The translations under genes and the position numbers were made by a program. A DNA stretch of 64,000 nucleotides from Candidatus Poribacteria bacterium (GTDB lineage: Bacteria > Poribacteria > WGA-4E > PCPOR2b): NCBI GenBank assembly GCA_965222435.1, contig OZ244950.1:1707273-1771272 (forward strand), given 5' to 3'. The notes beneath the pieces are model-generated. The model was given only the letters and a program-made list of their open reading frames with translations, was not told where the DNA came from and ran no database searches. Every line of letters begins with the position of its first letter. Position 1 is the first letter of the stretch. Of the stretch, positions 2,266 through 38,894 are shown in pieces.

Positions 2266-3084
2266 ATGAAAGATACCGAAGCCGTTACCCTTACCCCCGC
2301 ACAACGGCTGCATTTCGACATCTACGGTTTTGTACTATTGGAAAACGTCTTGACCCCCGATGAAGTGGCTCGCATGAAGGACGCGCTCCATCGAATGAAA
2401 GCCGATCCGGACCTCGAGTCCAAGCGGGTCTACACCCATCAGCGTGGTGAACACCATGTCCTGCTGGGCAATCTGGTGGAGTATGACCCTGCCCTGCTGG
2501 AATATGCCGCCCATCCCAAACTGGTGCCGCTCGTTGAGGAGGTAGTCGGTGGCAAGGTGCGCCTTGAGGAGACTGAGGCGATTATCAACCGCAGAGATCC
2601 GGAAGCGGATATCGAGGAACTTCACAAACGACGCTATAACCCCACCGGATTGCATCGTGGGACACAGCACGGCTGGGGAACTTACATCGAACAGAGCAAA
2701 TTTCACTGTATCTTCGTTAAGACGCTGACCTATCTCACTGATGTGGGACCCGACGACGGGGGCACCTGCTTTATCCCCGGCAGCCACCGGCTCACTTGGG
2801 ATAGGGAAGAGATGATCGAAGCCGCCCTCTCTGATGACAACCTGATCTATCAGGTAGAGGCAACCGCTGGCTCGACCTTGCTCTTTCCGGAGTCACTCAT
2901 CCACAGCACGACCGCCATCCGCAGCGACAAGGAACGCACAATCCTAGTCGCTGGCTATACGCCGCCGATGGTGCGCGAATGGCCCGGAAACGAGATCAGC
3001 CCTGAGTTCGTCGAAACCCTACCCGAAGATATTAAGCCGCTTATCTCCGGAAGCGATAGCTGGCGTTGGGAAAGACGGTATTGA
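2266..3084 (+). CDS. phytanoyl-CoA dioxygenase (PhyH) family Fe(II)/2-oxoglutarate oxygenase
   Basis: 272 aa; LTDVGPDDGGTCFIPGSHRL and later HSTTA motifs typical of PhyH-like dioxygenases. Confidence 0.7.
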   Translation: MKDTEAVTLTPAQRLHFDIYGFVLLENVLTPDEVARMKDALHRMKADPDLESKRVYTHQRGEHHVLLGNLVEYDPALLEYAAHPKLVPLVEEVVGGKVRLEETEAIINRRDPEADIEELHKRRYNPTGLHRGTQHGWGTYIEQSKFHCIFVKTLTYLTDVGPDDGGTCFIPGSHRLTWDREEMIEAALSDDNLIYQVEATAGSTLLFPESLIHSTTAIRSDKERTILVAGYTPPMVREWPGNEISPEFVETLPEDIKPLISGSDSWRWERRY

Positions 3085-3125
3085 TAATCACTTAATCCGA
3101 AATGATACAAGAGAGGACTGAATAA

Positions 3126-3434
3126 ATGCCAAACGTTAAAATGTATACAACTGGTTTTTGCCCATACTGTTACAAGGCAAAAGATATCCTTGACAGTAAG
3201 GGAATCGAATTTGAAGAAATCAACATTCAGGGAAAGCCCGGGATGCGCGATGAAATCGAAAAGCTAACGGGGCGCCGCGATGTACCGCAAATCTTTATTG
3301 ACGACCAACACATCGGCGATGATGATGATTTAGCCGAACTCGCAGAATCGGGGAAACTGAATGAAATTTTCAACATAGAAGGAGAAACAGATGGCAGAGA
3401 TAAAAAACGGAAGCGATGGTTTGGAAGAGCGTAA
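3126..3434 (+). CDS. glutaredoxin
   Basis: 102 aa; CPYC active site near N-terminus (YTTGFCPYCYKAKDIL), RDVPQIFIDDQHIGD motif. Confidence 0.75.
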   Translation: MPNVKMYTTGFCPYCYKAKDILDSKGIEFEEINIQGKPGMRDEIEKLTGRRDVPQIFIDDQHIGDDDDLAELAESGKLNEIFNIEGETDGRDKKRKRWFGRA

Positions 3435-4359
3435 TATCGTCATTATCGGTGGCGGCACGGCGGGTTTCGCCGCAGGGGTCTACACCTCACGGGCAATGCT
3501 GGAGCCGCTGCTCATCACCGGAGACGCACTCGGTGGGCAACTCTCACTGACGCTTGATCTTGAGAATTATCCGGGCTTCTTCGGGACCGAGGCCGCAGAA
3601 TTTATCACAGGGATGCAGAAACAAGCCGAGCGTTTTGGGACAGAGGTAAAGTTTGACATGGTAACGGAAGTGGACTTCAATCGCCACCCGTTCTACCTGA
3701 AGACCTATGACCAAGAGTACCTCGCCAAATCGGTTATTATTTGTACCGGTGCCTCCCCACGGACACTCAATATCCCCGGCGAGGAAGGGTACGGCGGACG
3801 TGGCGTCTCCTACTGCGCTACCTGCGATGGATTCTTTTTCCAGAACCAACGCCTCATCGTTGTCGGTGGCGGCGACGCCGCCCTTGAGGAGGGGATATTT
3901 CTGACAAAGTATGCGTCGGAGGTCTATGTCGTTCACCGCCGAGATCAGCTTCGCGCCAGCCAAATTATGCAGGAACGTGCCTTCAAGAACGATAAAATCA
4001 AGTTCATCTGGGATACGGTTGTCGAAGAGATCCAAGGGGACGACGAAAAGGTTACCGGTGCGCTGCTCAGAAACGTGAAGACCGACGAAAAGCAGGTGTT
4101 TCCGATTGATGGTGTATTTATCTTTATCGGACATATCCCGAACACCGATCTATTCAAAGGTGTGATCGACATGGATGAACAGGAGTACATCGTGGTGGAC
4201 AAACTCCAACGCACCAATATCGACGGTGTTTTTGCAGCAGGTGATGTACATGACCATATCTTCCGTCAAGCGATCACAGCGGCGGGTGCCGGTGCCGCGG
4301 CGGCTATCTCATCGGAGAAGTTCATCGCTGAATTGGAGAACCGCGCCTATCCGGGATAG
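3391..4359 (+). CDS. trxB: thioredoxin-disulfide reductase
   Basis: IVIIGGGTAGFAAG FAD-binding motif and CATCDGFFF redox-active disulfide motif; start uncertain (overlaps glutaredoxin 3' end, a TTG at about 3421 is an alternative). Confidence 0.8.
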   Translation: MAEIKNGSDGLEERNIVIIGGGTAGFAAGVYTSRAMLEPLLITGDALGGQLSLTLDLENYPGFFGTEAAEFITGMQKQAERFGTEVKFDMVTEVDFNRHPFYLKTYDQEYLAKSVIICTGASPRTLNIPGEEGYGGRGVSYCATCDGFFFQNQRLIVVGGGDAALEEGIFLTKYASEVYVVHRRDQLRASQIMQERAFKNDKIKFIWDTVVEEIQGDDEKVTGALLRNVKTDEKQVFPIDGVFIFIGHIPNTDLFKGVIDMDEQEYIVVDKLQRTNIDGVFAAGDVHDHIFRQAITAAGAGAAAAISSEKFIAELENRAYPG

Positions 4360-4413
4360 TAGGCATTTTAACACAAATCGCCAAAAAGGCGTACTTTAGT
4401 TAAGGAAAAGATT

Positions 4414-5979
4414 ATGAAGGGAAAGAAAAAATCGTTACGGTTGGGGCGTGTCTTGTGCACTCTCCTTATGGCGTCGTTGATTCTCCTACTCTGCGGAATA
4501 CCGGTGGCAAATGCACAAACGTCCCAGCAAATCGCCAAAAAAGCACTAGCAGCGACGGTGCTCTTAGTCATGGAAGACGCTAATAGCCGGCCGCTTTCAA
4601 TCGGTAGTGGATTCTTCGTGCAACCCAACCAGATTGTAACCAACTTTGACGTTATCGAAGGTGCCGTTAAGGGCTACGCAAAACGCGTGGGTGAAAAAAC
4701 GAAACGCGACATTGAAGGTGTCACCGGATTTGACGAGCAAGGGACTCTGGTTATACTAAAGGTGTCGGGCTCTGATGTTCAGCCGCTTCCCCTAGGCGAT
4801 AGTAACAAGGTTGGGATTGGTGAGACCGTTTATGTCGCGAGCAATCCAAAAGGAGATTTGGAAGGCACATTCTCGAAGGGCCTTATTAGTGGACTTCAAG
4901 GGGATTCAACCAACAAACAACTCCAGATGACGGTTCTGATTTATCCAGCGAGTAGTGGAGGTCCCGTGCTAAACGGAATGGGTGAAGTGATAGGTGTTTC
5001 GGTGGCAACCTTCCGCAGAGGGCAGAATCTTAGTTTTGCCATTCCTTCAAACGATCTCACAGCACTCGCCGCTACAGTTGGCCCCGCGATACCGTTGTCG
5101 AAATGGCAACAACTTATGTCTTCCGCTATAGGCAATTTGAAGGGGATTTTTAGCGATTATAAGGGTGCTATCGCTGACTTGGACACTGCTATCCGACTTG
5201 ACCCTGATAATTTCTTTGCTTACTTTAACCGGGGAGTTGCCAAGGGTGAGTTGGGTGATTATAAGGGTGCCATCGTTGATTTTGATACCGCTATCCGACT
5301 CAAACCCGATTATGCCGCTGCCTACTTTAATCGGGGAACTATCAAAGTAAAATTAGGACAACACTTCGCCGCTATCGCCGACTATGATACTGCTATCCGA
5401 CTTAAACCCGATTATGCCAAAGCCTACGATAGTCGGGGGACTGCCAAGGCAGCATTAGGACAACATTTCGCCGCTATCACCGACTATGATACTGCTATCC
5501 GACTCAAACCCGATGGTGTCATTGCCTACTTTAATCGGGGAACTACCAAGGCAGAATTAGGACAACACTTCGCCGCCATCGCCGACTATGATACTGCCAT
5601 CCGACTCAAATCCGATTATGCCGCTGCCTACGGTAATCGGGGGATTGTCAAGGCAGAATTAGGACAACACTTCGCCGCTATCACCGACTATGATATTGCC
5701 ATCCGGCTTAAACCTGATAATGTCATTAACTACCTTAATCGAGGAAATGCGAAGGCAGAATTAGGACAATATTCCGATGCTATCACTGACTACGATACCG
5801 TCATCCGACTCAAATCCGATTTTGCCAAAGCCTATTATAATCGGGGATTGGCAAAGTACGGCTTGAGTCGGTCCATGGAGGCAAAGCAAGATTTTCAAAC
5901 GGCATTGAAACATGCGGATCAGGCTGGCGATGCGCTTCTCAAAACCCAAATTGAGTCGGCGATTCGAGACCTCCACTAG
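4414..5979 (+). CDS. secreted trypsin-like serine protease with C-terminal TPR repeats
   Basis: N-terminal signal peptide; S1-like motifs (GSGFFV, PASSGGPVLN); about seven consecutive 34-aa TPR units (AIADYDTAIRLKPDYAAAYFNRG...). Confidence 0.65.
   Translation: MKGKKKSLRLGRVLCTLLMASLILLLCGIPVANAQTSQQIAKKALAATVLLVMEDANSRPLSIGSGFFVQPNQIVTNFDVIEGAVKGYAKRVGEKTKRDIEGVTGFDEQGTLVILKVSGSDVQPLPLGDSNKVGIGETVYVASNPKGDLEGTFSKGLISGLQGDSTNKQLQMTVLIYPASSGGPVLNGMGEVIGVSVATFRRGQNLSFAIPSNDLTALAATVGPAIPLSKWQQLMSSAIGNLKGIFSDYKGAIADLDTAIRLDPDNFFAYFNRGVAKGELGDYKGAIVDFDTAIRLKPDYAAAYFNRGTIKVKLGQHFAAIADYDTAIRLKPDYAKAYDSRGTAKAALGQHFAAITDYDTAIRLKPDGVIAYFNRGTTKAELGQHFAAIADYDTAIRLKSDYAAAYGNRGIVKAELGQHFAAITDYDIAIRLKPDNVINYLNRGNAKAELGQYSDAITDYDTVIRLKSDFAKAYYNRGLAKYGLSRSMEAKQDFQTALKHADQAGDALLKTQIESAIRDLH
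5150..5870 (+). repeat. tandem ~102-bp repeats encoding TPR units
   Basis: Near-identical 102-nt units visible at nucleotide level (gctatccgactcaaacccgat... recurring), in-frame within the protease gene. Confidence 0.6.
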
Positions 5980-6084
5980 CGAGGCAGTAATACCACACAA
6001 AAGGGGAACTTGGAATTCTTGACTTTGAGATAGTGGAATGATGTTGTCTAACAAGCCATTGGAAAGTGAAACAACGATGGAACA

Positions 6085-6963
6085 GTGTTTGATGAAGGGA
6101 GCGCGTTGATTGTGATTTTCTATAAATACGTTACCGCAGAACGAATTGATATTCTTCAAAATCGCCTAATCCGGTTCACGCAACCTGACGCGTTGAATGA
6201 TCCCTTTGAAGCTAAACCGCATTTCCACGCATTCGCAACAAAGGCGGGGCTTGCAAGTGCCTTTGCAGATATGATTAGGCAGGCTCCTACTGTTGTATGG
6301 GAAGACTTCCGGAGAGTAACACAAACCAACTTAGATCGACGAGCGTTCGCTGATAAACTTGAGGGAGATCCCGATTATGCTGATTGGCTATATAAGAATG
6401 TTGGTTTGCCGGACCCCCTTCCTAAGGAACGGAAAAAAGTGAGGAAATGGTTTAAGGTTGTAGGCATCCTATCCCTTTCCGAAACATGGGATAATCTGCT
6501 CATGTGGGCACACTATGCCGAAGAACACACCGGTTTTGTTCTTATGCTTGACGGTTCCCATGATTTCTTCAAAGGAGATAATTCTTTACTTGGGTTTGCA
6601 AAACCTGAACGTGTTGAATACAAATCGGAGCGTCCGAGTACAACAATTGAAGAGGTAACCGTGCCAGAGATCTTCCTGACTAAAGGTTTCGATTGGAAAT
6701 ATGAGAAAGAGTGGCGGTATTTGAAGTACCTCAACGGTGCGGACGAGCGACGCGAGGAACCCAATACTTATCCTGTGGAGCTCTTCAGGTTGCCCCTCAA
6801 GTGCATAAGGGGTGTAATCCTTGGGTGTCGCAGATCTAAAGAATTAGAAAATAACATCGTTGCCTTACGACGCGATGATCCGGAGTTTGGGCACTTGCAA
6901 ATCCTACAAGCACGTGCATCTACAAGGCGTTACCGGCTAGGGATAGAGGAAATAAAAACCTAA
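6085..6963 (+). CDS. DUF2971 family protein
   Basis: N-terminal FYKY...LNDPFE motif followed by LSLSETWDNLLMWAHYAEEHTGFVLMLD, characteristic of DUF2971. Confidence 0.5.
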   Translation: MFDEGSALIVIFYKYVTAERIDILQNRLIRFTQPDALNDPFEAKPHFHAFATKAGLASAFADMIRQAPTVVWEDFRRVTQTNLDRRAFADKLEGDPDYADWLYKNVGLPDPLPKERKKVRKWFKVVGILSLSETWDNLLMWAHYAEEHTGFVLMLDGSHDFFKGDNSLLGFAKPERVEYKSERPSTTIEEVTVPEIFLTKGFDWKYEKEWRYLKYLNGADERREEPNTYPVELFRLPLKCIRGVILGCRRSKELENNIVALRRDDPEFGHLQILQARASTRRYRLGIEEIKT

Positions 6964-7112
6964 CCTGCCCTTGCACCTCCCTGCTTTAATACTTTATCAC
7001 GATAGAAGGAGATCAAAACGATGATAGATTATATGGTTCCAATCCTTCGCATCGCTCAGTCTGAGGATGAAGATCCAATCTTTTTCAAGCATACCAGACA
7101 AGGAAAAAAAAG

Positions 7113-8246
7113 ATGTTAAAAATTATTGACAACGGCATCATTTCCCACCAGAAAGAGCGGGGAGCGTACATGCCCGTGATCACCCCCCTCACAGACGGTA
7201 GTTTCATCGCCTGTCAGCATGTCGGGCAGGGGCTAGGCACACCGGACAATCATATCGAGATACTTCGTTCAATGGATGGGGGCGCAACATGGGTCAATGA
7301 AGGGAGCATCCATCCCGGCGGCACGCCTATTGCTTTGAATCCCGATGAAATCGGGGCGGACGGATGGTCTTATCGGGGTCCAAAGATTAGCGAGGTTCCA
7401 GACGGTCGCTTGGTGATGAACGCTACCCGTTTCGAGAACGAGGGCGGCACGCTCTTTGACACGGAATCGGAAGCCTTGCAGCGTCCGGAGATTCTGCTGT
7501 TCTGGTCAGAAGATCAAGGCAAAACGTGGTCAGAACCGCAGGTCGTGCCGGTAGACCTACCGCCCGAAAAATACACATGGAACGGGGCTGGACCTCTCTT
7601 GCAACTCGTGCCGGATCGGTGGATGTACCCCCTCGAAACGTGGAAGCCCGAAGGCTATGAAGGTCCTCCCGATCAGAAGGCAGCGGCTGTATTCTCCGCA
7701 GATCAGGGAGAAACGTGGGGAGAGTTCACCGTCGTCGCAGATGACCTCACAGGCGCGTTGCTCTGGTGGGATCAGATGTGCGCCTTGTTACCGGATGGAC
7801 GCATCTATACCCTAATCTGGACGCACCAGTACGGAACCTCCGAGGACTTGACGAACCACTGGGTGATCTCTGAAGACGGTGGACGTACTTGGTCCGAACC
7901 CCGACCGACAAATCTGCGCGGTCAGGTCTGCACCCCCATCCCGCTGCCCGACGGTCGCGTGGCGGCAATCTACAATTTCCGACACGAACCCCAAGGCATC
8001 CATGTGGCACTGACCGAAGACCTTGAGAATTTCGACGTAGAGAACGAGGTCGTGGTCTTTGATGCAGGAAAAGAGGCAACCCTCGGCGAACCTGAGAACG
8101 AGAACTTCCTCGCTGAACACATGCAGATCGCTTTTGGCAAGCCCGGTGGGACAACCCTGCCGGACGGGGATGTGATGACCTATTTCTGGTGTACTGTGGC
8201 GGGAGTCACCCATACGCGCTGGGTGAAATTGCGATTGGAAGGCTAA
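7113..8246 (+). CDS. BNR/Asp-box repeat protein (sialidase-like glycosidase)
   Basis: Four Asp-box motifs S/D-x-D-x-G-x-T-W (MDGGATW, DQGKTWSEP, DQGETWGEF, DGGRTWSEP). Confidence 0.65.
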   Translation: MLKIIDNGIISHQKERGAYMPVITPLTDGSFIACQHVGQGLGTPDNHIEILRSMDGGATWVNEGSIHPGGTPIALNPDEIGADGWSYRGPKISEVPDGRLVMNATRFENEGGTLFDTESEALQRPEILLFWSEDQGKTWSEPQVVPVDLPPEKYTWNGAGPLLQLVPDRWMYPLETWKPEGYEGPPDQKAAAVFSADQGETWGEFTVVADDLTGALLWWDQMCALLPDGRIYTLIWTHQYGTSEDLTNHWVISEDGGRTWSEPRPTNLRGQVCTPIPLPDGRVAAIYNFRHEPQGIHVALTEDLENFDVENEVVVFDAGKEATLGEPENENFLAEHMQIAFGKPGGTTLPDGDVMTYFWCTVAGVTHTRWVKLRLEG

Positions 8247-8253
8247 TAAAAGG

Positions 8254-8309
8254 GAAACCGAGTTTTTTCCCCGGTCACGGGATCCTCTCGGACTTGAAAA
8301 CTCGGTTTC
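8254..8309. terminator. palindromic hairpin (gaaaccgagtttt...aaaactcggtttc) followed by T-rich run
   Basis: 13-bp inverted repeat with extended loop, 8 nt after the BNR gene stop, then tttctttctt; member of a recurrent hairpin family (see 12439, 33510). Confidence 0.4.
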
Positions 8310-8381
8310 TTTCTTCCGCTATCGGTTTTTGTTGTATGCTTTCTTAACACGAGCTAGCAATGATAGAAAGGAACAGTTCAG

Positions 8382-9143
8382 ATGGATTGGCAAAAGGATT
8401 CACAACAACTCAAAGATGCCTTTGACCGAGATGGATTTGTGGTCATTCCCGGTTTCTACACCCCGGAAGAGACAGCGGCGTTAAACGCTCATATTGATCG
8501 GTTCATTGCGGAGACGTTGCCCGGATTGCCGTCGGACGCAGCCTTTTACGAAGCCAAGGGGCAGACCGAAAGCATTATGCGGTTACAGGGCATGGCGTCT
8601 TACGACAGCCATTTCAAGGAACTTACCGAGAGCGATCGGTTTGCCAAGCTGGCGGAATTGCTGCTAGACGATGGGGTTATAAGTAAAAATATGGAGTGGT
8701 TCACGAAACCCGCCCGCAGCGGTGCAGAGACGCCACCCCATCAAGATGGGTTCTACTTCATGCTCGAACCAAACGAGGCACTGACGTTGTGGCTGGCATT
8801 GGATACGGTGAATGATGAGAACGGCTGTATCCACTATGCACGGGGTTCTCACCGCCGAGGCATGAGACCCCACCGACAGACAGCCGTGTTCGGGTTCTCC
8901 CTAGGAGTTACGGACTACGACGAAGCGGATTATCAAGAGGAAGCAGCCATCCATGCCGCGCCGGGCGATATGATCGTGCATCACTGCATGACGATTCATC
9001 GCGCAGGTTCCAACCCCACCACGAACCCGCGCCGGGCACTGGGGCTTGTCTATTATGCTCAACGTGCTAAGGCGGATGCAGAACGTCAGGCGGCGTACAA
9101 GAAAGAGCTAATGGAACTATGGGAAAAAGAGGGGAAACTTTAG
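8382..9143 (+). CDS. phytanoyl-CoA dioxygenase family protein
   Basis: 253 aa; PhyH-like pattern (FVVIPGFYTPEE, HQDGFYF, IHYARGSHR, HHCMTIHRAGSN). Confidence 0.7.
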   Translation: MDWQKDSQQLKDAFDRDGFVVIPGFYTPEETAALNAHIDRFIAETLPGLPSDAAFYEAKGQTESIMRLQGMASYDSHFKELTESDRFAKLAELLLDDGVISKNMEWFTKPARSGAETPPHQDGFYFMLEPNEALTLWLALDTVNDENGCIHYARGSHRRGMRPHRQTAVFGFSLGVTDYDEADYQEEAAIHAAPGDMIVHHCMTIHRAGSNPTTNPRRALGLVYYAQRAKADAERQAAYKKELMELWEKEGKL

Positions 9144-9199
9144 AGGTTAGGGCTTGTGCATTTCAGTTCCAAAAGTGAGGTCGGACGCAGACTTCGCTG

Positions 9200-9343
9200 A
9201 TTTTCGCAGATTGCTTTGAACCCCGATCTCATCGGGGAAAAACAGAAAGGCTCATATAAAAAGAAAGTGCAAAATGCGAAGCGAAATTGTAGGGGCGGGG
9301 TCTCCCCGCCCGTAGTACGGGTTGGGGGACCCAACCCCTACAA
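9200..9343. repeat. composite intergenic repeat block (hairpin repeat + GTAG-flanked palindromes, REP/BIME-like)
   Basis: ttgctttgaaccccgatctcatcgggg at 9200..9226; gtagg-ggcgggg...ccccgcc-cgtag followed by gggttggg-gga-cccaaccc-ctac; homologous copies elsewhere in window. Confidence 0.5.
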
Positions 9344-9401
9344 AAACTCGGTTTCTGTTGCACGATTTCTTAACACGAGCGACCATTAATAGGAGTGAGC
9401 G

Positions 9402-10178
9402 ATGCTGACCGATGCACAACTCTACCATTTCGCTGTTCACGGTTGGGTACTCCAAGAGGACGTATTCAGTCCTGAAGAGGTCGATGCCTTCAAGTGCGGA
9501 CTTGATCAACTCTATGAAAGAAAAGTCTCGACAATGAAGGACTCCGAAGACATCAAGAACATCAACAACATGGTGAACTACGACCCAATCTATCGGGATT
9601 GGATGATGTCGCCGAAAATCCTCCCCGTTCTGAAGCAGCTCTTGGGAACACCACCCCGTTTTGAGTGCTGTCACGCGATGATAAAATCCCCACACCCCGA
9701 CCGGACGAAACGGCGCGATGAACTTCGGGATACGGAAAAGATGGGGTGGCATCGCGGCATTCGACCAAAATATGGTATCGTGCCGGCGAACAACCATCCC
9801 TACATCAACACAACCTTCCTCAACAACGCCACCTACCTGACGGACGTTGATCCTGAACATGGCGGCACAATGATCCTAGACGGCTCACACCGAATCGAGG
9901 CGAAGGATTGGAAAGAAATTTTCGATCCCGCGATGGTCGTTCAGATTGAAGCAAAGGCGGGATCGGTGATGCACTTCACGGAGGCGTTGGTTCATACCGG
10001 TGTCCCGATCCTCTCCGAGCAAACTCGCTATACGATGTTCTACGGTTTCACTCCGCCGTGGATGCAGTGTTGGCCCGGATGTAGCCCGACACAGGAAGTC
10101 ATTGACGCCAGCGAAGGGGAACTCAAGGAAATCCTCGGAGGACGCACGGGATATATGGGACAGTACGGACCTGAGTGA
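9402..10178 (+). CDS. phytanoyl-CoA dioxygenase family protein
   Basis: 258 aa; LTDVDPEHGGTMILDGSHR and FTEALVHTG motifs. Confidence 0.7.
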   Translation: MLTDAQLYHFAVHGWVLQEDVFSPEEVDAFKCGLDQLYERKVSTMKDSEDIKNINNMVNYDPIYRDWMMSPKILPVLKQLLGTPPRFECCHAMIKSPHPDRTKRRDELRDTEKMGWHRGIRPKYGIVPANNHPYINTTFLNNATYLTDVDPEHGGTMILDGSHRIEAKDWKEIFDPAMVVQIEAKAGSVMHFTEALVHTGVPILSEQTRYTMFYGFTPPWMQCWPGCSPTQEVIDASEGELKEILGGRTGYMGQYGPE

Positions 10179-10233
10179 GTAGAACCCTACGAACCCAAAA
10201 TCTGAATCCCTTGTGAGAAGGAGGGTATATTCA

Positions 10234-11040
10234 ATGCTATCCGATTTGGAAGTTGGACAATTTTGGACATTCGGGTTCACTGTCTTGAGAGGCTGCCTGA
10301 GCGAAAAAGAGGTAGACCGTCTACAGGAAACACACAATCGCGTCATTGCAGACGCACCGGTCTACAACTATTTCGCCGAGAACGGCACCCGGATGCTGAG
10401 CCCTTTCGTCCAAGCGGACGATGAATTCGCAGAGTTAATCGAGCATCCCGGTGTGATGGAAGCCATGCGCGATATCTGGGGGACAGAGTGTCTCTATATT
10501 GCCGGCAGCGATATGTGGGCGAACCGAGATGACACCCCTTGGCACACCGACGGTCAGCCGGGGCGACAGAACGTCACGCTCAAGACCGCCATATACCTCG
10601 ATGAGCAGTCCAAAGATCTGGGATCGTTGAACCTGATTCCCGGCAGCCACCATCCTGAATACTCTGCAGCACTCTTCCGATCCTGCGGTTACTGGGATAG
10701 GGGAAGACCCCGCCTGCGCCTCGATCCCCATGCAATTCCGGGAGTTCTCTCCGTCCAGACCTGTCCCGGAGATGTTGTGTTGTGGGACAATCGCCTGTGG
10801 CACTCCGCCTTCAAACGCAAGGACGGTCGTCCCCGGCGGACGATGTTTATCGGCTATATACCGGACCCCCAAGATGACCTGCTCGCGATCAAAGACCTTC
10901 GTACGACGATTGAAACTCAATCAACTGAGCAGCAGCCGTTCGTCTATAGCAAGGAGATGATGGAAAAGGGTTGTCCTAGGCGCGAGAAGATGGCGGTACG
11001 GCTAGAGGAATTGGGCGTGGAAAAGGTGAGAGAAACATAA
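10234..11040 (+). CDS. phytanoyl-CoA dioxygenase family protein
   Basis: PhyH-like (LNLIPGSHH, VVLWDNRLWHSAF); start set at internal ATG preceded by aggagg. Confidence 0.65.
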   Translation: MLSDLEVGQFWTFGFTVLRGCLSEKEVDRLQETHNRVIADAPVYNYFAENGTRMLSPFVQADDEFAELIEHPGVMEAMRDIWGTECLYIAGSDMWANRDDTPWHTDGQPGRQNVTLKTAIYLDEQSKDLGSLNLIPGSHHPEYSAALFRSCGYWDRGRPRLRLDPHAIPGVLSVQTCPGDVVLWDNRLWHSAFKRKDGRPRRTMFIGYIPDPQDDLLAIKDLRTTIETQSTEQQPFVYSKEMMEKGCPRREKMAVRLEELGVEKVRET

Positions 11041-12438: not shown

Positions 12439-12470
12439 GAAACCGAGTTTTGAAGAAAAAACTCGGTTTC
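12439..12470. terminator. palindromic hairpin gaaaccgagtttt-gaag-aaaaaactcggtttc between convergent genes
   Basis: Perfect 13-bp stem; lies between the 3' ends of the + strand oxidoreductase and the - strand redoxin gene; same family as 8254 and 33510. Confidence 0.45.
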
Positions 12471-12512: not shown

Positions 12513-13070
12513 TTAGAGAAACGCTTTCTCTCTCGATTCCTCCGAGACATCCCACGCACGGTCATATTCATAGTCGTCCCGACGCGCTAACAGTGCCCGC
12601 AGATCGTGTCGCAGTTCCTCCACGGTGGGTCTTCCAACAAACCACCAACCGTTGTAAATCTTGTAGATCTCCCGGTCCGCGTTAAGGACGAAAGTATAGG
12701 GGATAGGAATCGGCGAGTGGCGGGCGTCCGTGTTGTCTACAATGTCCAATTCATTGATCAATGCCCGGTCAAGGTCAATCAGGAAGGGCCACGTCGCGCC
12801 GATACGTTCACGAAGCGCCCTCGTTGTTTCCTGATCATCAACTGAGACAGCAATTAGCCTACAGTAGTTGACTTCTAGTTCGGGCTGCAAATCTTTTGCG
12901 TAATTCTCCAACTGGAGAACATCCTTCGGTCAATATGCCCCACGCCAGAAGACCAAGACCGTGGGCCAACCACGCATCAAATCCTCCAGCGTTCTGACCA
13001 TGCCATCTTGATCGGGACGTTCAAAGTTCGGGAATATGTTGCCCGGTATCAAATCTTCACGGATCTTCAT
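12513..13070 (-). CDS. thioredoxin-fold redoxin (peroxiredoxin-like) with in-frame TGA: candidate selenoprotein
   Basis: ATG at 13070..13068 preceded by aggagg (5-nt spacer); reading frame is continuous with listed ORF 12513..12911 except for one TGA at 12932..12930; translation ...TVLVFWRGAY-U-PKDVLQLENYAKDLQ... places TGA at the expected redox-Cys position. Confidence 0.6.
12904..12919 (-). promoter_or_regulatory. candidate bacterial SECIS hairpin
   Basis: uucucc-AGUU-ggagaa hairpin beginning 14 nt after the in-frame UGA, apical loop contains GU. Confidence 0.4.
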
Positions 13071-13146
13071 TGTAACCTCCTGCCTTACGAAACCACATGT
13101 ATAGGACTTATCAGTTCACCCAACCAATGAACTCATAATGAACTTC

Positions 13147-13170
13147 TCACGCATTACGTATCACGTTTTA
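13147..13170 (-). repeat. 7-nt-periodic stop-codon motif at gene end (TAA-TGA-TAA-TGA)
   Basis: Minus-strand stops at 13170, 13163, 13156, 13149, covering all three frames. Confidence 0.4.
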
Positions 13171-24366: not shown

Positions 24367-24755
24367 CAGGAGGAGGACTAATACTTTAACGTGAGCTGCT
24401 AGACTCTATTGACATTTAACAGGAGTGTAAGTCGAAGATTCTCGGAACGGGGTTGAGTTGAACGGGAATCTGAAACCCAACACCATAACCGTAGGTCGAG
24501 CAGCTTGTCCGACTTAAAACCCCAGTTGCTTTGAATCCCGATCTTATTGGGGCGGGGCAGCAAGTGTATAGAAAATCAGACGCTGCATACCTAAAACTTC
24601 AGTTGGTTTGAAACTCGATCGCAGCATCGGGCCGAGGCAACATGTGTTTAGTCATTTCTAGCAGTTGTTGAGCATGGAAACTCAACCTCAGCAGGTCGTG
24701 GTGGAAATCATTTGACATGATGGCTCGACTTGGATTGACAAATCCACAGAGGAGG

Positions 24756-25202: not shown

Positions 25203-27143
25203 CTATTTTAGAATGACCATCTTGCGCATTGCATAAAAATGGTCTGCTTGTAACTGGTAAAAATAAACGCCACTTGCGACTGATTCCCCGCTTTCGTTGT
25301 GCCCATCCCAATACGCTGCGCTTGTCCTATCTGTGTAGTAGCCCGGCTGCTGATACCCAAAATCTAACTGACGCACCACTACGCCTTGAGGGTCGTAAAT
25401 GGTCAGCGTCACATCGGCAGCGTGGGCAAGGTGATAGGGAATCCATGTCTCTGGGTTGAATGGATTGGGATAGTTTGCAAGCAGTACAGTTTTGTGGGGT
25501 ATAAAGGGCAGAGAAACGTCCTGTAAGGCAGCGCGCAGTTGGTTGAGATTGGCAATACCTTGCCGGAAAGCGAACGAACCATCATCTGCGGCGTGCGCCA
25601 TATCAATCCACTTTTGAATCGTTGCGGGGTCAATCCCGAACGTTTGCCATGCAAGCCCGCCGGGAGCCAAGGGGGTCGTTGCGCCCCCCAAGTGTTGAGC
25701 AACGGTGATGAGGTCAAAAATATTAACTATTCCATCGTTGTTGACATCCGCTTGGGGGTGGGCTTGACCAAAGTTTTGGCCCACCAGAACCAGATCCAAG
25801 ATATTTACCAGCCCATCCCCATTGAGATCATAATCCGATTCAACGACAATCTCAAGGGCGTGAATCCCGATATCAATCTCCTGATCGAAAAGTGTACGGA
25901 AGTCGACGTTGTGGAGGCTTAACTCCCCTTTTCCAGCCGCCCTTGCTTGAAAGGTTACTGACAGCAGTACATCACTGATCTGGAAGCAGTCCGCACCCAA
26001 CTCCATATTAACGCCGGTGATTCTGCCTGCCGCGTTGTCAATAATGCCCTCTTGAAAGACAGATTGGCTGCATCCATTATCGAGAGAAATATAGGTGCCT
26101 TCATCGACTTGAAGCGCGACAAGTACGCCGGGTGTGAACGCAATATCAAGTTCCCAACCCTCTAAAAGCAGAAAACCATCCAGATGGAGATTGAGTTTAA
26201 ATATCTCCCCAACACGAACTTGATCGATCAAGGGAAAGAAAAGGTGTGTACTTCCCACCCGAACCCCTCGATCCGAAAGGGCTGGAATATGTGTGTTGAT
26301 GGAGATGTCGCTTAGCGGGTTATCATCTACAACAACCTTATCTCCACGATCAAGCCCCATGTTTGCTACCAAGGGTGACAGATCCGATATTCCGTTGTTT
26401 TCAAGCCATAGCTCTTTCAGATTGGTCAAGCCCACCAAAGTCGATATATCCGCGAGACCATTGTGATTAAGATTCAAATCTGTCAAGTTCGTTAAAGCTG
26501 CTAAAGGCGATATATCTGTGATCGCATTATAGCCAAGATATAGGTCTTTCAGATTGGTCAAGTCCGCTAAAGGTGATATATCCGTGATGGCGTTGAAGCC
26601 GAGACTCAGATTTGTCAGGTTTGTCAAGCCTGCCAATACCGATATGTCAGTGAGCGCATTGTCAATAAGATATAAGTATGTTAGGTTTGTCAAGCCCATC
26701 AACGCTGATATGTCTGCGATAGGGTTGGAGCCAAGCCATAGGTCTGTTAGATTGGTCAAGCCCGCCAAAGGCGATATATCTGTAATGGTGTTGGAACCAA
26801 GATGTAGATCTGTCAGGCTCGTTAAGGTTGCCAAAGGCGCGATGTCCGATATCGCATTATCAGAAAGAAACAGCGTGTCTAGGTTGGTTGCGGACTCAAG
26901 TCCGGTCAAATTGCGGATTTGAGAGTTAAACCCGAAGATATAGGTCAAACTCTCCATCTCCGCCACAGTAATTGTAGCACCGGATGCCTTGCCAAGTTCT
27001 TCCTCCACCAAAGCGCGGAGGTTGGGGTCGGGTATATCAACGATTTGGGCAGATACCAAGTCCACTCCTATTATTGTAACGGAACAGACTATTGATATTG
27101 CTATTATAATGATTCTCATTTGAAATTTTCTGATCCTATTCAC
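25203..27143 (-). CDS. secreted leucine-rich-repeat protein with dockerin-like repeats and T9SS-type C-terminal sorting domain
   Basis: Signal peptide; at least 8 LRR units of 22 aa (LxxLTNLTxLxLxxNxIxDISPLA); two dockerin-like DxNxDGxVN repeats; C-terminal YPNPFNPET...GVYFYQL...KMVILK tail. Confidence 0.65.
   Translation of the reverse strand: MNRIRKFQMRIIIIAISIVCSVTIIGVDLVSAQIVDIPDPNLRALVEEELGKASGATITVAEMESLTYIFGFNSQIRNLTGLESATNLDTLFLSDNAISDIAPLATLTSLTDLHLGSNTITDISPLAGLTNLTDLWLGSNPIADISALMGLTNLTYLYLIDNALTDISVLAGLTNLTNLSLGFNAITDISPLADLTNLKDLYLGYNAITDISPLAALTNLTDLNLNHNGLADISTLVGLTNLKELWLENNGISDLSPLVANMGLDRGDKVVVDDNPLSDISINTHIPALSDRGVRVGSTHLFFPLIDQVRVGEIFKLNLHLDGFLLLEGWELDIAFTPGVLVALQVDEGTYISLDNGCSQSVFQEGIIDNAAGRITGVNMELGADCFQISDVLLSVTFQARAAGKGELSLHNVDFRTLFDQEIDIGIHALEIVVESDYDLNGDGLVNILDLVLVGQNFGQAHPQADVNNDGIVNIFDLITVAQHLGGATTPLAPGGLAWQTFGIDPATIQKWIDMAHAADDGSFAFRQGIANLNQLRAALQDVSLPFIPHKTVLLANYPNPFNPETWIPYHLAHAADVTLTIYDPQGVVVRQLDFGYQQPGYYTDRTSAAYWDGHNESGESVASGVYFYQLQADHFYAMRKMVILK
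26380..26900 (-). repeat. tandem 66-bp LRR-coding repeats
   Basis: Repeated units visible at nucleotide level within the LRR gene. Confidence 0.5.
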
Positions 27144-27484
27144 TTTTGTCCCCCTTCATTTTTCATCAACTATAATGATGCAACATTTGTCAAGCCTATC
27201 ACAAGAAAAACGTGGTATTCCACAGGGTATGTTGACATTTTACTGTCGCTAATTCGGGAGATGCTAGAATCATCCCTCTATCTGTCAAAAACCGAGGCGG
27301 TTATCCGAAATTACCTCAAGTTGCTTTAAATCCCGATCTTATCGGGGGTGTATTAGGTCAAAGACTCTCGGAACGGAGATTGATTCAATCTGTCAAATGT
27401 CAATAGAACTGAGTAAAAAAATGAAATCACAGATACCACCAATCTGCCATCTTAATTAGTAAGCCAACCGATACAAGCAAAAAC

Positions 27485-31653: not shown

Positions 31654-31770
31654 GGTAAATAACCTTATCGTATTGTTATCGGGACAGAATTTAACGCAAA
31701 GGCGCGAAGGTACAAGGATTTTTCTCTTCTTTTCCCTGCACCTCATTACGGCATTGCGTTGTTTTCTTTC

Positions 31771-31787
31771 TCACGTTTCACGCATCA
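31771..31787 (-). repeat. three tandem heptamers giving TGA in all three frames at carA stop
   Basis: Minus-strand acgtgat-gcgtgaa-acgtgag; TGA at 31787, 31780, 31773. Confidence 0.4.
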
Positions 31788-32963
31788 CGTCTTACTCATC
31801 AGATCCGTGAACCTCTTAAAAAGATACCTTGCGTCATGGGGACCGGGAGACGCCTCCGGATGATACTGCACAGCAAAGATCGGATATTCTCTGTGCTCCA
31901 TCCCTTCAAGGGTTTGATCGTTCAAGTTGATATGCGTCACCTTTACATTGTTTGGCAGTGAGTCAATGTCCACGCAGAAACCGTGATTTTGTGAGGTAAT
32001 TTCGACCTGATCTGTGTCGAATCGTTTAACAGGCTGATTTGCGCCGCGATGCCCGAATTTGAGTTTGAAAGTCTTTCCGCCAAATGCAAGTCCCAACAGT
32101 TGATGCCCCAAACAGATACCAAAGATTGGCTTCACCCCAATCAACTGCTGAATCGTCTTGATGCCGTATTCAATCGGTTCCGGATCGCCGGGACCGTTGG
32201 ATAAGAAGATACCATCTGGGTTCGCGGCAAGAATATCTTCTGCAGAAGTGTGTGCTGGCACCACTTGAACCTGACAACCGTGTTGGGTAAGCTGGCGTAA
32301 GATATTATATTTAACCCCGAAATCCACTGCAATAACTCGGAACTGGGGAGTTGACGGTGCCTCAATCCCTGTTGTGTCAAAGTCGATCGTGAGTTGGGAA
32401 TCTTTAGCATCGGCGGTGGGGCTCAACTCAGAGAGAGCGTCTGATTCGGGGTCGCGTGTCTCCCATAAGTACGGATTCGGGCATGTCACGTACTGAACCA
32501 TATCTACACCAACCAACCCGTGCCACGCCTGCGCTTTGGCAACCAAGCTTTGGGGGTCAAGATCTTCCGTCGAAAGTATTCCATTCATGACGCCATGTAC
32601 TCTGAGCCGTTTGGTCAATGCGCGTGTGTCAATACCGTGGATGCCGATCATCCCATTTTCTTCGAGGTAGCGGCTGAGATTGGACTGTGAACGCCAGTTG
32701 CTCTCGTATGCACTATATTCACGCACAACAAATCCTTCGGCTTGCGGTCGAATTGATTCGACATCGATTTCGTTGCAGCCGTAGTTTCCGATTAGCGGGT
32801 AGGTCATCGTGACGATCTGCCCCTTGTAGGATGGATCGGTGAGAATCTCTTGGTAGCCGGTCATACTGGTGTTGAAAACCACCTCACCGGAGGTTTCCCC
32901 GGTCGCGCCGAAATGTTCGCCTTCAAAGATTGTTCCATCCGCTAATGCGAGAATTGCTTTCAT
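31785..32963 (-). CDS. carA: carbamoyl-phosphate synthase small subunit
   Basis: MKAILALADGTIFEGEHFGA N-terminus and glutamine amidotransferase domain (GICLGHQLL, catalytic Cys). Confidence 0.9.
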   Translation of the reverse strand: MKAILALADGTIFEGEHFGATGETSGEVVFNTSMTGYQEILTDPSYKGQIVTMTYPLIGNYGCNEIDVESIRPQAEGFVVREYSAYESNWRSQSNLSRYLEENGMIGIHGIDTRALTKRLRVHGVMNGILSTEDLDPQSLVAKAQAWHGLVGVDMVQYVTCPNPYLWETRDPESDALSELSPTADAKDSQLTIDFDTTGIEAPSTPQFRVIAVDFGVKYNILRQLTQHGCQVQVVPAHTSAEDILAANPDGIFLSNGPGDPEPIEYGIKTIQQLIGVKPIFGICLGHQLLGLAFGGKTFKLKFGHRGANQPVKRFDTDQVEITSQNHGFCVDIDSLPNNVKVTHINLNDQTLEGMEHREYPIFAVQYHPEASPGPHDARYLFKRFTDLMSKT

Positions 32964-33133
32964 TGGGCTAGTTGTCCTTATTCTCAACAGGTTTGAATAT
33001 TATTCGTCTCTCGCTCTGCCTGAACTCGAAGTCAAACGTGATGGGTAAATGGTCAGGGGTTCATTGGTGCATTGGCTCACTAGTACATTAATGAACTTAT
33101 GAACTCAATATCCTCACCAACTCGCACCAAAGA

Positions 33134-33424
33134 TTATACAGGTTCCCACAGATCTTCTCTGAGGCTTCGTAGACGTAACGTGCGAATACGCACCTGCTTG
33201 ACCTGCCGAGGAACAAGAAAAAGCGTCATCTTTCCGTCATGAGTTGATGGAGAGGAAGCAGCTAGCTCTTCTCGTTTACGCTTCGCCGCTGTAAAGTCTT
33301 CTGCTACGCCTACAATCTGGGTATCGTTCAAAATGATAACTACCTTGCCCTCATACCGCTTGGGACGCTTATAGATTTTTTGGAGCCATTGTTGTGTTTG
33401 CCGTTTTTTCATGTGTCGCATCAC
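33134..33424 (-). CDS. hypothetical small protein
   Basis: 96-aa basic ORF downstream of the methyltransferase gene. Confidence 0.3.
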   Translation of the reverse strand: MMRHMKKRQTQQWLQKIYKRPKRYEGKVVIILNDTQIVGVAEDFTAAKRKREELAASSPSTHDGKMTLFLVPRQVKQVRIRTLRLRSLREDLWEPV

Positions 33425-33490
33425 CCTCTCAAGGAATAAACGGTTTTGCTATATGGGATATATCTCTCGCCCTTAATCAAGTTGGCTAAT

Positions 33491-33541
33491 GTTAAGAAAT
33501 CGTGCAACAGAAACCGAGTTTTCAAGAAAAAACTCGGTTTC
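33491..33541 (-). terminator. palindromic hairpin plus conserved flanking motif
   Basis: gaaaccgagtttt-caag-aaaaaactcggtttc at 33510..33541 preceded by gttaagaaatcgtgcaacag, the reverse complement of the motif upstream of the PhyH gene at 9402. Confidence 0.4.
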
Positions 33542-33564
33542 TTTTATAGATAGCAACTAGGTCA

Positions 33565-35187
33565 TCATGCCTCTATTTCAAGTTGCTGGCTTTGGGGGGC
33601 TGCCCGTTCTGCCCTGCGGAATGTGACATCAATAGGCGTCTGTGGATATTCAATACCGTGTCCCGCAAGCAGTTCCTCAATCGTCCGAATCTGAATCTTT
33701 GGATATGTCGTGTGAGTGACGTGAAGCCATTGAAAACGCCCTGCTGTCGCTGCTTCCTTGAGCATCGGTTGGGTCGGCGGATTCAGCGTGATAAAGACAC
33801 CAATCACAGCGTCTTGGGTTTCAACAACCGATTTCAGTTCCCGTATGTCCCTAACAGAAACCTTCCCACTTTTAACCTGAACGACAATCTTCCGGGTCAG
33901 CGTCTTTTTCGGCTTATCTGGATCAACATCCTGATAATAGATCATCCCGTCCACACCCTCGTCTGCCCCCTTCTTTTTCCCCTGATACGGTCTCGCCCGA
34001 ATCAGGCTTAACGCCCACCACTGGAATTGATACCGATCTTGAACCGCTAAAGCCTTCGCGCTCTCTGCATCTTTCGGCTCACCGATAACTTCGTATTTCA
34101 CACCGTCACCAAAGGCATCGGCAAGGCGGTACTTCAATAAAGCGATGGCAAGATGTGTGATGTCAACCCCAATCCACCGGCGGTTAAACTGTTGAGCAAC
34201 AGCGACAGCCGTCCCACAACCACAAAACGCGTCCAATACAACATCGCCTTCGTTACTACTCGCTTTGATAATCCGCTCAAGCAATGCTTCAGGCTTTTGG
34301 GTGGGATATCTGAGACGCTCTTTCGCTTGAGAGTTTATAGGTGGTATATCAACCCAAACATCCTGCATAGGAACACCGGGCATCTCATCTAAAAATTGTT
34401 TCAATCTAGGTGTACCATAGCGAGTATAGTATAGTTTGCCGGATTCATGGTATTCCTGCATAGTGCTATACGGACAGCGCCAAATCTTAGTTATTCCATT
34501 CCACTCATACTCATATCCTCCTCCACTCAAAGAGCCTGCCGTTAAATCCCTGTCTAAAAATCTTCTGCCATTTTCATCAGTATGTTTATAATACTTCTCA
34601 ATGTACCCATCAGAATATGGTAGATACTGTTCATTATGAGTGAAAGAATTACTTATTGAATAGTAAAGTATAATGTCATGTACGTTCCCATATACGGCAG
34701 AATCATTATGGGCTGCGGTTCGTCTCCAAGTAATCTCATTCCTGAAATTTTTAACGCCAAAAATCTGATCCAAGATAATCTTCAGATAATGCGACGCCGT
34801 CGGATCACAATGGAGATAAAAGCTCCCTGTCGGTTTCAGGACACGGTGGAGTTCCACCAATCGCAACCCCATCATCACGAGGTACGCCATCAGATTGTTT
34901 TCACCGAGGATTCCGCGAAAACTCTTGATTGTCTCAACCAGAAGGGGTGGCGCGGTCTCGACCAGCTCATAATATGCCTGCTCAGTGGTTTCGACCCAAT
35001 GCCATGTATCCTCAAAGGCTTGGATCTGTGCCTGCGACGATGAGCCATCCCTTTCGCTGAAAATCACGTTGTACGCTTGATTCGAGTTAAATGGCGGATC
35101 GATGTAAATGAGATCGACGCTTTCGTCGGGGATGTGGGCCCGCAAAATGTCTAGATTGTCACCATAGTAGAGTTGATTCATATCCAT
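33565..35187 (-). CDS. DNA methyltransferase (N6-adenine/N4-cytosine type) fused to a C-terminal Mrr-like PD-(D/E)xK nuclease domain
   Basis: Motif IV DPPF (LIYIDPPFNS) before motif I (VVLDAFCGCGTAVAVA), i.e. beta-class order; C-terminal GADEGVDGMIYY...VVQVKSGK...GVFITL resembles the Mrr catalytic domain. Confidence 0.6.
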   Translation of the reverse strand: MDMNQLYYGDNLDILRAHIPDESVDLIYIDPPFNSNQAYNVIFSERDGSSSQAQIQAFEDTWHWVETTEQAYYELVETAPPLLVETIKSFRGILGENNLMAYLVMMGLRLVELHRVLKPTGSFYLHCDPTASHYLKIILDQIFGVKNFRNEITWRRTAAHNDSAVYGNVHDIILYYSISNSFTHNEQYLPYSDGYIEKYYKHTDENGRRFLDRDLTAGSLSGGGYEYEWNGITKIWRCPYSTMQEYHESGKLYYTRYGTPRLKQFLDEMPGVPMQDVWVDIPPINSQAKERLRYPTQKPEALLERIIKASSNEGDVVLDAFCGCGTAVAVAQQFNRRWIGVDITHLAIALLKYRLADAFGDGVKYEVIGEPKDAESAKALAVQDRYQFQWWALSLIRARPYQGKKKGADEGVDGMIYYQDVDPDKPKKTLTRKIVVQVKSGKVSVRDIRELKSVVETQDAVIGVFITLNPPTQPMLKEAATAGRFQWLHVTHTTYPKIQIRTIEELLAGHGIEYPQTPIDVTFRRAERAAPQSQQLEIEA

Positions 35188-35751: not shown

Positions 35752-36029
35752 CCCCTACCCCATTTGCAAAATTAGTAGGTCGTGATTTTATTTTTTTATA
35801 GGACTTACACAGTTGAACACTGAGGTTTTGTAGTTCGATGCTTCAGTGCCAACGCGGGGCAAGTCCGAGAGGATTTCCGAAGAATCGAGAGCAGGCCCGT
35901 GACCGGGGAGGCCCCGCCTACGATGGGTATGGATTCTGACCATACCCCGAAACGCCCGATGAATCGGGCAACTACAAGCCGATGAATCGGGGAACTACGA
36001 TATGAGGTGCGTAAGTCCTGTTTTATTTA

Positions 36030-36046
36030 TCACGTTTCACGCTTCA
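36030..36046 (-). repeat. three tandem heptamers giving TGA in all three frames at pyrC stop
   Basis: Minus-strand acgtgaa-gcgtgaa-acgtgat; TGA at 36046, 36039, 36032. Confidence 0.4.
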
Positions 36047-38472: not shown

Positions 38473-38492
38473 CAGTCACCAAATCAGGGCAT

Positions 38493-38524
38493 AAAAAAAG
38501 CCTCCCCTACAGAAAGAGGGAGGC
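38493..38524 (-). terminator. intrinsic-terminator-like hairpin plus U7 in the leader of the HD-pyrR-pyrC cluster
   Basis: Minus-strand gcctccc-loop-gggaggc followed by ttttttt, about 20 nt upstream of the HD-gene ATG. Confidence 0.4.
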
Positions 38525-38756
38525 ACTTAACCATTCAATAGTTTTTGAGATATGGGAGTAACCGTAAATCATGTGTGATACCCTTTCCTAACCTCGCGGG
38601 ATCAGATTAAAAGGGAAAATTCTTCCATGTACGCCGCTGCCATTAAAACCGTTTTAAGTGTAGCACAATTGATCTATTTTTGCAAGAGAAATGTTGACCA
38701 TTGACATCGTGCGAAAATTCTGCTAAACTTAATCCCATCATTAAAATCAGGACTTA

Positions 38757-38810
38757 CGCAGCGTGTAGGGGCGAGGTCACCTCGCCCGTAGGGAACAACG
38801 ATCGTTGTTC
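38757..38810. repeat. GTAG-flanked double palindrome (REP/BIME-like)
   Basis: gtagg-ggcgagg-tca-cctcgcc-cgtag then ggaacaacga/tcgttgttcc-ctac; same architecture as 9288..9343 with compensatory stem changes. Confidence 0.45.
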
Positions 38811-38894
38811 CCTACCGAAGTGTGTAACCCCTAAAATTGTTAGTCAGCCAGAAAGTACCATTCCAAATTTATTTAGATTGACGGGAGAACATCT

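Follow-up and report, generated by a model that had tools for sequence, protein, structure and literature searches.

A short palindromic repeat at gene boundaries in Candidatus Poribacteria is very probably a miniature element with IS1595-type ends

Bacterial miniature inverted-repeat transposable elements (MITEs) that derive from insertion sequences (ISs) with DDE transposases, such as RUP of Streptococcus pneumoniae and the IS-family MITEs of ISfinder, are short and non-coding, end in inverted repeats that match those of an IS, are flanked by a duplication of fixed length, and occur as many dispersed intergenic copies with insertion polymorphism. Correia elements (CREE) of Neisseria are MITEs of ~100-150 bp that lie beside genes, are co-transcribed and form a long hairpin. 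Effects on termination, processing and promoter activity are reported for them, and they duplicate the dinucleotide TA. Repetitive extragenic palindromes (REPs), including the mosaics known as BIMEs and the REPIN-RAYT systems, are short palindromes often found 3' of genes, with an orientation bias and no target-site duplication. The IS1595 family (Siguier, Gagnevin and Chandler 2009; ISApl4, PMC12561309) has members of ~1 kb with a single open reading frame (ORF) for a transposase with the DDE_Tnp_IS1595 domain, and for one of them A/T-rich direct repeats of 8 bp have been reported (PMC12561309). Here we describe an element of ~91 bp in a stretch of 64,000 nucleotides from a Candidatus Poribacteria bacterium (contig OZ244950.1, positions 1,707,273 to 1,771,272; hereafter the window). 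A recurrent hairpin and an adjoining motif in this DNA had been proposed, in what we call the original prediction, to form a terminator-promoter cassette or a shared operator. We conclude that hairpin and motif are very probably modules of one MITE with the ends of an IS1595-family IS, dispersed in Candidatus Poribacteria.

The element shares with the known DDE-type MITEs all the features just listed, and differs from them in that its ends are of the IS1595 type, that its interior is a separate, self-standing palindrome rather than the remnant of an internally deleted IS, and that its host belongs to an uncultivated phylum. The partner IS described below agrees with the IS1595 family in its transposase domain, its length of ~1 kb, its single ORF and its A/T-rich 8-bp repeats, whereas the window contains only the non-autonomous derivative, without a transposase. 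Correia elements are similar in their possible terminator and promoter side effects; their inverted repeats and TA duplication set them apart, and no outward promoter was called for the Poribacteria MITE. With REPs and BIMEs the element has in common the short extragenic palindrome that often lies 3' of genes, the mosaic arrangement and the orientation bias. The lack of a target-site duplication is shared too, here by solo cores only.

The unit is ~91 bp long (89-92 bp between the ends of canonical copies), and its order, R2-core-R1, is conserved in a listing of the flanks of 141 hairpins and in an alignment. A left inverted repeat (IRL, or R2), GGCTCATGTAAAAAGAAAGTGCAAAG… with the arm GGCTCATGTAAAAAGAAAGTGCAAAGCACGAAG, is followed by a 34-nt palindromic core and a right inverted repeat (IRR, or R1), …TTGCACGATTTCTTAACATGAGC. 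Written in full, the sequence is GGCTCATGTAAAAAGAAAGTGCAAAGCACGAAGAGA – AACCGAGTTTT-loop-AAAACTCGGTT – TCT(G)TTGCACGATTTCTTAACATGAGC[C/G], which is quasi-palindromic as a whole. Its core is a 34-nt perfect palindrome, AGAAACCGAGTTTT-6 nt-AAAACTCGGTTTCT, and the terminal repeats GGCTCATGT[A/T]AA.A..A.GTGCAA stand inverted at both ends of the unit. The motif of the original prediction is R1, the right arm, (G)TTGCACGATTTCTTAACATGAGC[C/G], and R2 is the left arm. The unit is short and has no coding capacity. As RNA, the whole of it is predicted to fold into one rod-like hairpin (-41.4 kcal/mol, z=-9), and the DNA fold is predicted at -25.8 kcal/mol.

A profile search of the window with nhmmer returned exactly five sites, most of them truncated or bearing nested inserts. 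The hairpin had been placed just 3' of a gene at three sites, and each of them has perfect 13-bp inverted arms, GAAACCGAGTTTT/AAAACTCGGTTTC. The first (8254-8266/8297-8309, with a loop of 30 nt) begins 8 nt past the stop of gene 7113-8246. The second (12439-12451/12458-12470, loop of 6 nt) lies 43 nt past the stop of the minus-strand gene 12513-12911, and the third (33510-33522/33529-33541, loop of 6 nt) 24 nt past the stop of the minus-strand gene 33565-35187, which encodes a DNA methyltransferase fused to an Mrr-like domain. The motif in its 20-mer form, TGTTGCACGATTTCTTAACA, is exact at 9356-9375 (+) and 33490-33509 (-) and has three mismatches at 8330-8349 (+); 100 shuffles gave 0 matches. 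It is thus found where it had been reported, upstream of the genes at 8382 and 9402, both of which match the PhyH family (Pfam PF05721), and, reverse-complemented, upstream of the minus-strand gene at 33424. The coupling of hairpin and motif at gene boundaries was also correctly seen, and it exists because both are parts of one MITE, lying within a single ~91-bp unit. Three features had gone unnoticed: a further conserved arm, GGCTCATrTAAAAAGAAAGTGCAAA, at 9249-9286 and 46633-46669; the continuation of the motif to ...ACAYGAGC[C/G], which makes it the inverted counterpart of that arm; and a fifth copy of the element at 46633-46828.

Copy A (8254-8355, plus strand) consists of the core and R1, the IRL arm being missing. 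Its core (8254-8309) has the long loop noted above, and a 20-nt insertion (8310-8329, +) separates it from the IRR/R1 arm (8330-8355, +), which is a variant, TGTTGTATGC...CACGAGC, and precedes the PhyH start codon at 8382. Copy B (9249-9381, +) has both arms, with a foreign insert and half a core between them. Behind its IRL/R2 arm, GGCTCATATAAAAAGAAAGTGCAAAATGCGAAGCGAAA (9249-9286, +), a GTAG-type double palindrome of an unrelated repeat family (9287-9343) replaces the left half and the loop of the core, leaving half a hairpin, the right arm AAAACTCGGTTTC alone (9343-9355, +); the IRR/R1 arm (9356-9381, +) closes the element at 9381, and the second PhyH start codon follows at 9402. Copy C (12439-12470) is a solo palindromic core without arms between convergent genes. 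Copy D (33484-33541, minus strand) has R1 and the core (33510-33541), again without the IRL arm; its IRR/R1 arm (33484-33509, -) faces a 96-aa ORF at 33134-33424 (-). Copy E, a MITE of 196 bp (46633-46828, +), has its IRL at 46633-46669 and its IRR at ~46802-46828, with other repeat modules in place of the core, and the gene next to it starts at 46875.

The ends of the unit match those of an autonomous IS. A metagenome scan seeded by R1 alone yielded 52 contigs, and in five of these R1 is the end of a 983-bp element that is present in near-identical copies with differing flanks. This element has the IRL GGCTCATGTAAAAACTAAGTGCAAAAG and the IRR CTTGCACTTAGTCTTAACATGAGCC and encodes one 305-aa protein with a DDE_Tnp_IS1595 domain (PF12762, E=6.9e-16); it thereby has the domain, the single ORF of ~300 aa and a length within the ~0.7-1.1 kb of the IS1595 family. 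It ends ...GCTTGCACTTAGTCTTAACATGAGCC, and the stop codon of its transposase lies inside the R1-like IRR. The IRL of the IS agrees with R2 at 27/36 positions and its IRR with R1 at 23/27. The two IS ends are asymmetric (GTAAAAA vs GTTAAGA); because this asymmetry is reproduced in the MITE arms, R2 can be equated with the IRL and R1 with the IRR. Copies of the 983-bp IS are flanked by 8-bp duplications too. A related transposase, P0002, is 76% identical to that of the query IS, and its 90%-identity cluster includes MCZ6676462.1, labelled Candidatus Poribacteria by NCBI, the contig of which ends in TTGCACTAACTCTTAACATGAGCC, a matching IRR. That cluster also has a full-length member that begins with GGCTCATGTTAAAACAAAGTGCGAAACGCGGCG; this start agrees with R2, the 'bulge' region of the arm included.

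Other candidates for a mobilising enzyme were tried and rejected. The protein families that recur next to the element are only expanded metabolic families (PhyH, GFO_IDH_MocA, PD40, LRR and others), and a local Transposase_31 cluster is unrelated to it. Such YhgA-like genes (Transposase_31, PD-(D/E)XK) form tandem clusters in one Poribacteria genome, four at L104 2544-7451 and two at L065 697-2860, which have no relation to the MITE.

Target-site duplications flank the element. With its boundaries set at [G/C]GCTCATG...CATGAGC[C/G], the adjoining 8-mers are identical at 7 or more of 8 positions in 22 of 47 arm pairs. When the boundaries are moved by one base, only 0/47 and 1/47 pairs have duplicated 8-mers. 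The duplicated 8-mers are 75% A+T, compared with 57% for the intergenic DNA of the window and 50% overall. In the window, the duplication of copy E is perfect, with AACCAAAA at 46625-46632 (+) and again at 46829-46836 (+), an 8/8 match. That of copy B is degraded: the left 8-mer AACAGAAA (9241-9248, +) agrees with 9382-9389 at 5/8 positions.

Insertion polymorphism is seen between species. Positions 2357-11040 of the window are 86-91% identical in nucleotide sequence to the Poribacteria chromosome OZ242315.1 (locus L020). There, the orthologous site holds copy A in compact form with the same TGTTGTATGC variant, which means that copy A was inherited; in the window it later acquired ~24 nt in its loop and the 20 nt beside its arm. 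Copy B, in contrast, is missing from L020, the closest relative. Another repeat family occupies the spacer there; the flanking sequence is conserved, and so is the second PhyH gene at its ribosome-binding site (RBS) and its start. When one spacer was compared in three species, it was short in one, held a full MITE in another and other repeats in the third. A second spacer was found both empty and filled, in different species. Such filled, empty and replaced orthologous sites fit a mobile element and oppose an operator that the PhyH genes need.

The element is spread over many Poribacteria species. We scanned 185,579 species genomes for the pattern AACCGAGTTTT-N(4-34)-AAAACTCGGTT, and the hairpin counts, contexts and orientations given here for Poribacteria rest on the matches listed in that scan. 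The core hairpin occurs in at least 115 stretches, mostly from ~20 Candidatus Poribacteria assemblies among the matches listed. By profile search, 102 Poribacteria hairpins comprise 32 full units, 31 with one arm and 39 cores only, and 63/102 keep at least one arm. The viral contigs contain the hairpin in one contig only (L168, IMGVR_UViG_3300050331_000123), where tandem partial copies at 2750-2870 and 6946-6973 are interleaved with CCCGGTTTCTCCCCCTCTCGAA repeats; this contig may represent a prophage or else a Poribacteria fragment that was misclassified. A literature search found no paper on this sequence or on MITEs in Poribacteria. Judged by the literature searched, the IS1595-type MITE is a new family, and its class is an ordinary one.

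At the sequence level the element thus has the size, the inverted repeats, the fixed duplication, the IS-matching ends and the dispersed polymorphic copies of a MITE. We propose that an IS1595-family DDE transposase would move it in trans, making 8-bp duplications of A/T-rich targets. Copies may gather at gene boundaries through a concentration of A/T-rich 8-mers in intergenic DNA and around stop codons, and the loss of insertions inside genes would add to this placement. Inserted copies would decay or take nested insertions, which would account for the mix seen in the window: core with R1, R2 and R1 around a foreign insert, and a solo core. In a transcript, the element as a whole would fold into one long hairpin, and its core, flanked by AGAAA/TTTCT, might serve as a weak bidirectional terminator or 3'-end stabiliser, an effect that would be a by-product.

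A number of observations weigh against this explanation. About half of the arm pairs have no recognisable duplication, which is expected if they are old or recombined, and solo cores have none at offsets of 0-11 and lengths of 2-8. A tblastn search with the IS1595 transposase gave no match in the window or in ~0.9 Mb of sampled Poribacteria loci; a partner in this genome is therefore putative. In ERZ26694896, a 6.75-Mb genome with three identical IS copies, ~63 kb of IS flanks hold neither MITE nor hairpin, so that this genome is no example of IS and MITE together, and these flanks show no similarity to Poribacteria loci. The gene contexts were taken from longest-ORF proxies, not from curated annotation. 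Finally, the core is not part of the IS, and solo cores make up 39/102 Poribacteria hairpins and nearly all copies from other phyla; their spread is left unaccounted for by the MITE model.

In copies chosen by R1 alone, the stem of the core is kept by compensatory changes, with three pairs and seven cells changed on both sides; 97.8% of cells are paired, and 0/500 shuffles reach these values. The 6-nt loop occurs in both orientations, GAAGAA/CAAGAA or TTCTTC/TTCTTG (L002-L114 alignment; window 12452-12457 and 33523-33528), a flip-flop that hints at inversion inside the palindrome or at templated repair there. Relatives of the MITE have the same arms around other cores, among them the variant AGAAACCGAGTTTCTC-NN-GAGAAACTCGGTTTCT and an unrelated palindrome. 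In Chloroflexota, Thiotrichaceae and Ca. Vecturithrix, individual metagenome-assembled genomes (MAGs) contain several cores whose flanks are unrelated. Outside Poribacteria there are few copies beyond the seeded ones, and other A/T-flanked hairpins have a comparable density there, so that convergence may account for some of the signal across phyla. As a separate observation, in one Poribacteria genome, OZ240244.1 (L006, L013, L043, L069, L105) the core sits inside a different conserved repeat, AAGTTGCAGTTTT...GTTATCC..GAGA-core-TC..AAAGTTGCTTA, which replaces the IS1595-type arms.

Because of the compensatory stem evolution, the free flipping of the loop and the multiple copies present in Poribacteria, and perhaps also in Chloroflexota, Thiotrichaceae and Ca. 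Vecturithrix, we keep in mind the unlikely idea that the palindrome AGAAACCGAGTTTT-loop-AAAACTCGGTTTCT is a separate, duplication-free module, spread or kept independently and captured as cargo by the IS1595-derived MITE. If this were true, a DDE-type MITE would be the vehicle of a mobile bidirectional terminator, or REP-like hairpin, across phyla. A REP- or REPIN-like origin would make the core the true mobile or selected unit, spread by an enzyme that recognises single-stranded hairpins, of RAYT or IS200/IS605 type, or kept by a host factor, with the IS1595-type arms having captured it only secondarily. The same stem changes (three pairs, seven cells; 0/500 shuffles), the freely flipping loop, the exchange of cores between the same arms and the repeated cores with non-conserved flanks in single MAGs are in its favour, as is the frequency of solo cores without target-site duplication. 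We nevertheless consider it distinctly unlikely, as the core has no GTAG-type REP signature and the composite copies carry DDE-type 8-bp duplications and IS1595 ends. The extra copies outside Poribacteria are few, and some cross-phylum matches may be low-complexity hairpins that resemble terminators and arose by convergence. Neither a RAYT nor a Y1 transposase was seen, though no search aimed at either was made.

In a cassette or operator of the kind raised in the original prediction, the hairpin would end the upstream transcript and the motif would drive or control the downstream gene, the unit being kept for this function. Its placement agrees with such a role: the hairpins of the window begin 8-43 nt past stop codons, and R1 lies 21-60 nt upstream of a start codon in 4/4 armed window copies, all of which follow the orientation bias seen more widely. 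In Poribacteria, with genes defined by the longest-ORF proxies, R1 faces gene starts in 31 cases and gene ends in 13, R2 faces gene ends rather than starts (37:19), and in tandem contexts the direction from IRL to IRR is that of the genes in 32 cases against 13 (p=0.007, orthologous duplicates removed). It is not true, however, that the motif always points at the downstream gene: ~30% of Poribacteria copies have the opposite direction, and an independent sample, the R1-seeded metagenome contigs, did not replicate the bias (17:16). The orientation of the core loop is random with respect to transcription (15:15 and 12:17) and also with respect to the arms. The bias could stem from selection acting on co-transcribed RNA, from a coupling of insertion to the direction of replication, or from sampling. 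Hairpin contexts in Poribacteria are 51 tandem, 18 convergent and 13 divergent (n=82), against a background of 412/80/82. Convergent intergenic regions are mildly over-represented (18/82 vs 10-14% in the background), which speaks for the cassette; there is no depletion of divergent ones, and the 13 of 82 hairpins that stand between divergent genes speak against it.

The core hairpin is predicted at -18 to -19 kcal/mol, has an AGAAA lead and a U-rich TTTCT tail, and on this prediction looks like a weak bidirectional terminator. A consensus terminator scan made no call at either canonical hairpin (12439 and 33510). A scan for sigma-70-like promoters (-35 and -10 hexamers with a spacing of 16-18 nt) found no site between 8000 and 12800 and, in the stretch 33000-34000, no site at the motif, with a consensus that may not fit Poribacteria. 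The genes downstream of the copies are unrelated to each other (PhyH, the 96-aa ORF and others). The origin of the unit is also at odds with a cassette or operator, for the motif is the end of an IS1595-type IS and contains the stop codon of its transposase, the unit is flanked by 8-bp duplications, and the L020 ortholog of the second PhyH gene has its RBS and start codon in place but no copy of the unit upstream. Thus, the coupling, the position at gene boundaries and, within Poribacteria, a tendency in orientation stand, while an origin as a terminator-promoter cassette or shared operator is in our judgement highly unlikely; a termination side effect of the element is possible. That the unit is a multi-copy structured non-coding RNA gene of ~90 nt or a cis-regulatory RNA is hardly credible, since, despite the very stable predicted fold of the whole unit and the compensatory changes in its central stem, searches of Rfam at gathering and at permissive thresholds gave nothing but sub-threshold generic hairpins, the palindrome is a DNA-level one found in both orientations with duplications and IS-derived ends, the loop is unconserved and flips, and many copies are truncated or interrupted.

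Other repeats share the window with the MITE. A 27-nt palindromic repeat, TTGCTTTGAATCCCGATGAAATCGGGG, lies at 7329-7355, in frame (+9 codons), inside the BNR-domain gene 7113-8246, and is missing from the L020 ortholog. It recalls the Rickettsia palindromic elements, which sit inside coding sequences. Members of the same family occur at ~9210-9236, 24525-24551 and 27320-27346 and, in reverse, at 46727-46750. G+C-rich double palindromes of the GTAG type, TTGTAGGGGCGGGGTCTCCCCGCCCGTA / TACGGGTTGGGGGACCCAACCCCTACAA, which are REP/REPIN-like, are found at 9287-9343 and 38766-38815. At least three further short intergenic repeat families are present: CCCGATGAATCGGGCAACTACA at 2129-2157 and 35948-35999; AAGTTGAAAACTCTCGGAACGG at 24429-24453, 27355-27379 and 46766-46790; and an ACGTGA-rich 31-mer on the stop codons of minus-strand genes, at 13136-13166, 31760-31790 and 36019-36049. 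The mosaic of repeat modules in intergenic DNA differs between species (L016, L030, L101). Directly upstream of copy E, in the region 44015-46633, the tandem paralogous genes 44061-45239 and 45337-46536 are ~81-96% identical in blocks, and a 28-mer, GTAACTGTTTAGTCCATCAATCTGTACT, at 43985, 45282 and 46579 brackets each of them.

The window has further features away from the element. Rfam matches a PyrR-binding site at 38491-38618 (-), at 54.5 bits with a threshold of 54, upstream of a minus-strand block of pyrimidine-related genes that includes carA (31785-32987). Tandem repeats within coding sequences occur at 5167-5949, as 102-nt units inside gene 4414-5979, and at 26393-27201, as 66-nt units with leucine-rich-repeat-like periodicity inside gene 25203-27143; such repeats typify the eukaryote-like repeat proteins that sponge symbionts encode.

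In conclusion, copies of this MITE should be masked as repeats; where they precede PhyH or other genes, they should not be taken for promoters, operators or riboswitches. Several families of short mobile repeats, with turnover between species, form a mosaic in the intergenic DNA of Poribacteria, and the copies are markers for comparisons of strains and species. An IS1595-family transposase lineage has probably been active across the phylum. Furthermore, if the core does terminate or stabilise transcripts, the MITE would spread 3'-end signals in an uncultivated sponge symbiont, in a manner comparable to the Correia elements of Neisseria.

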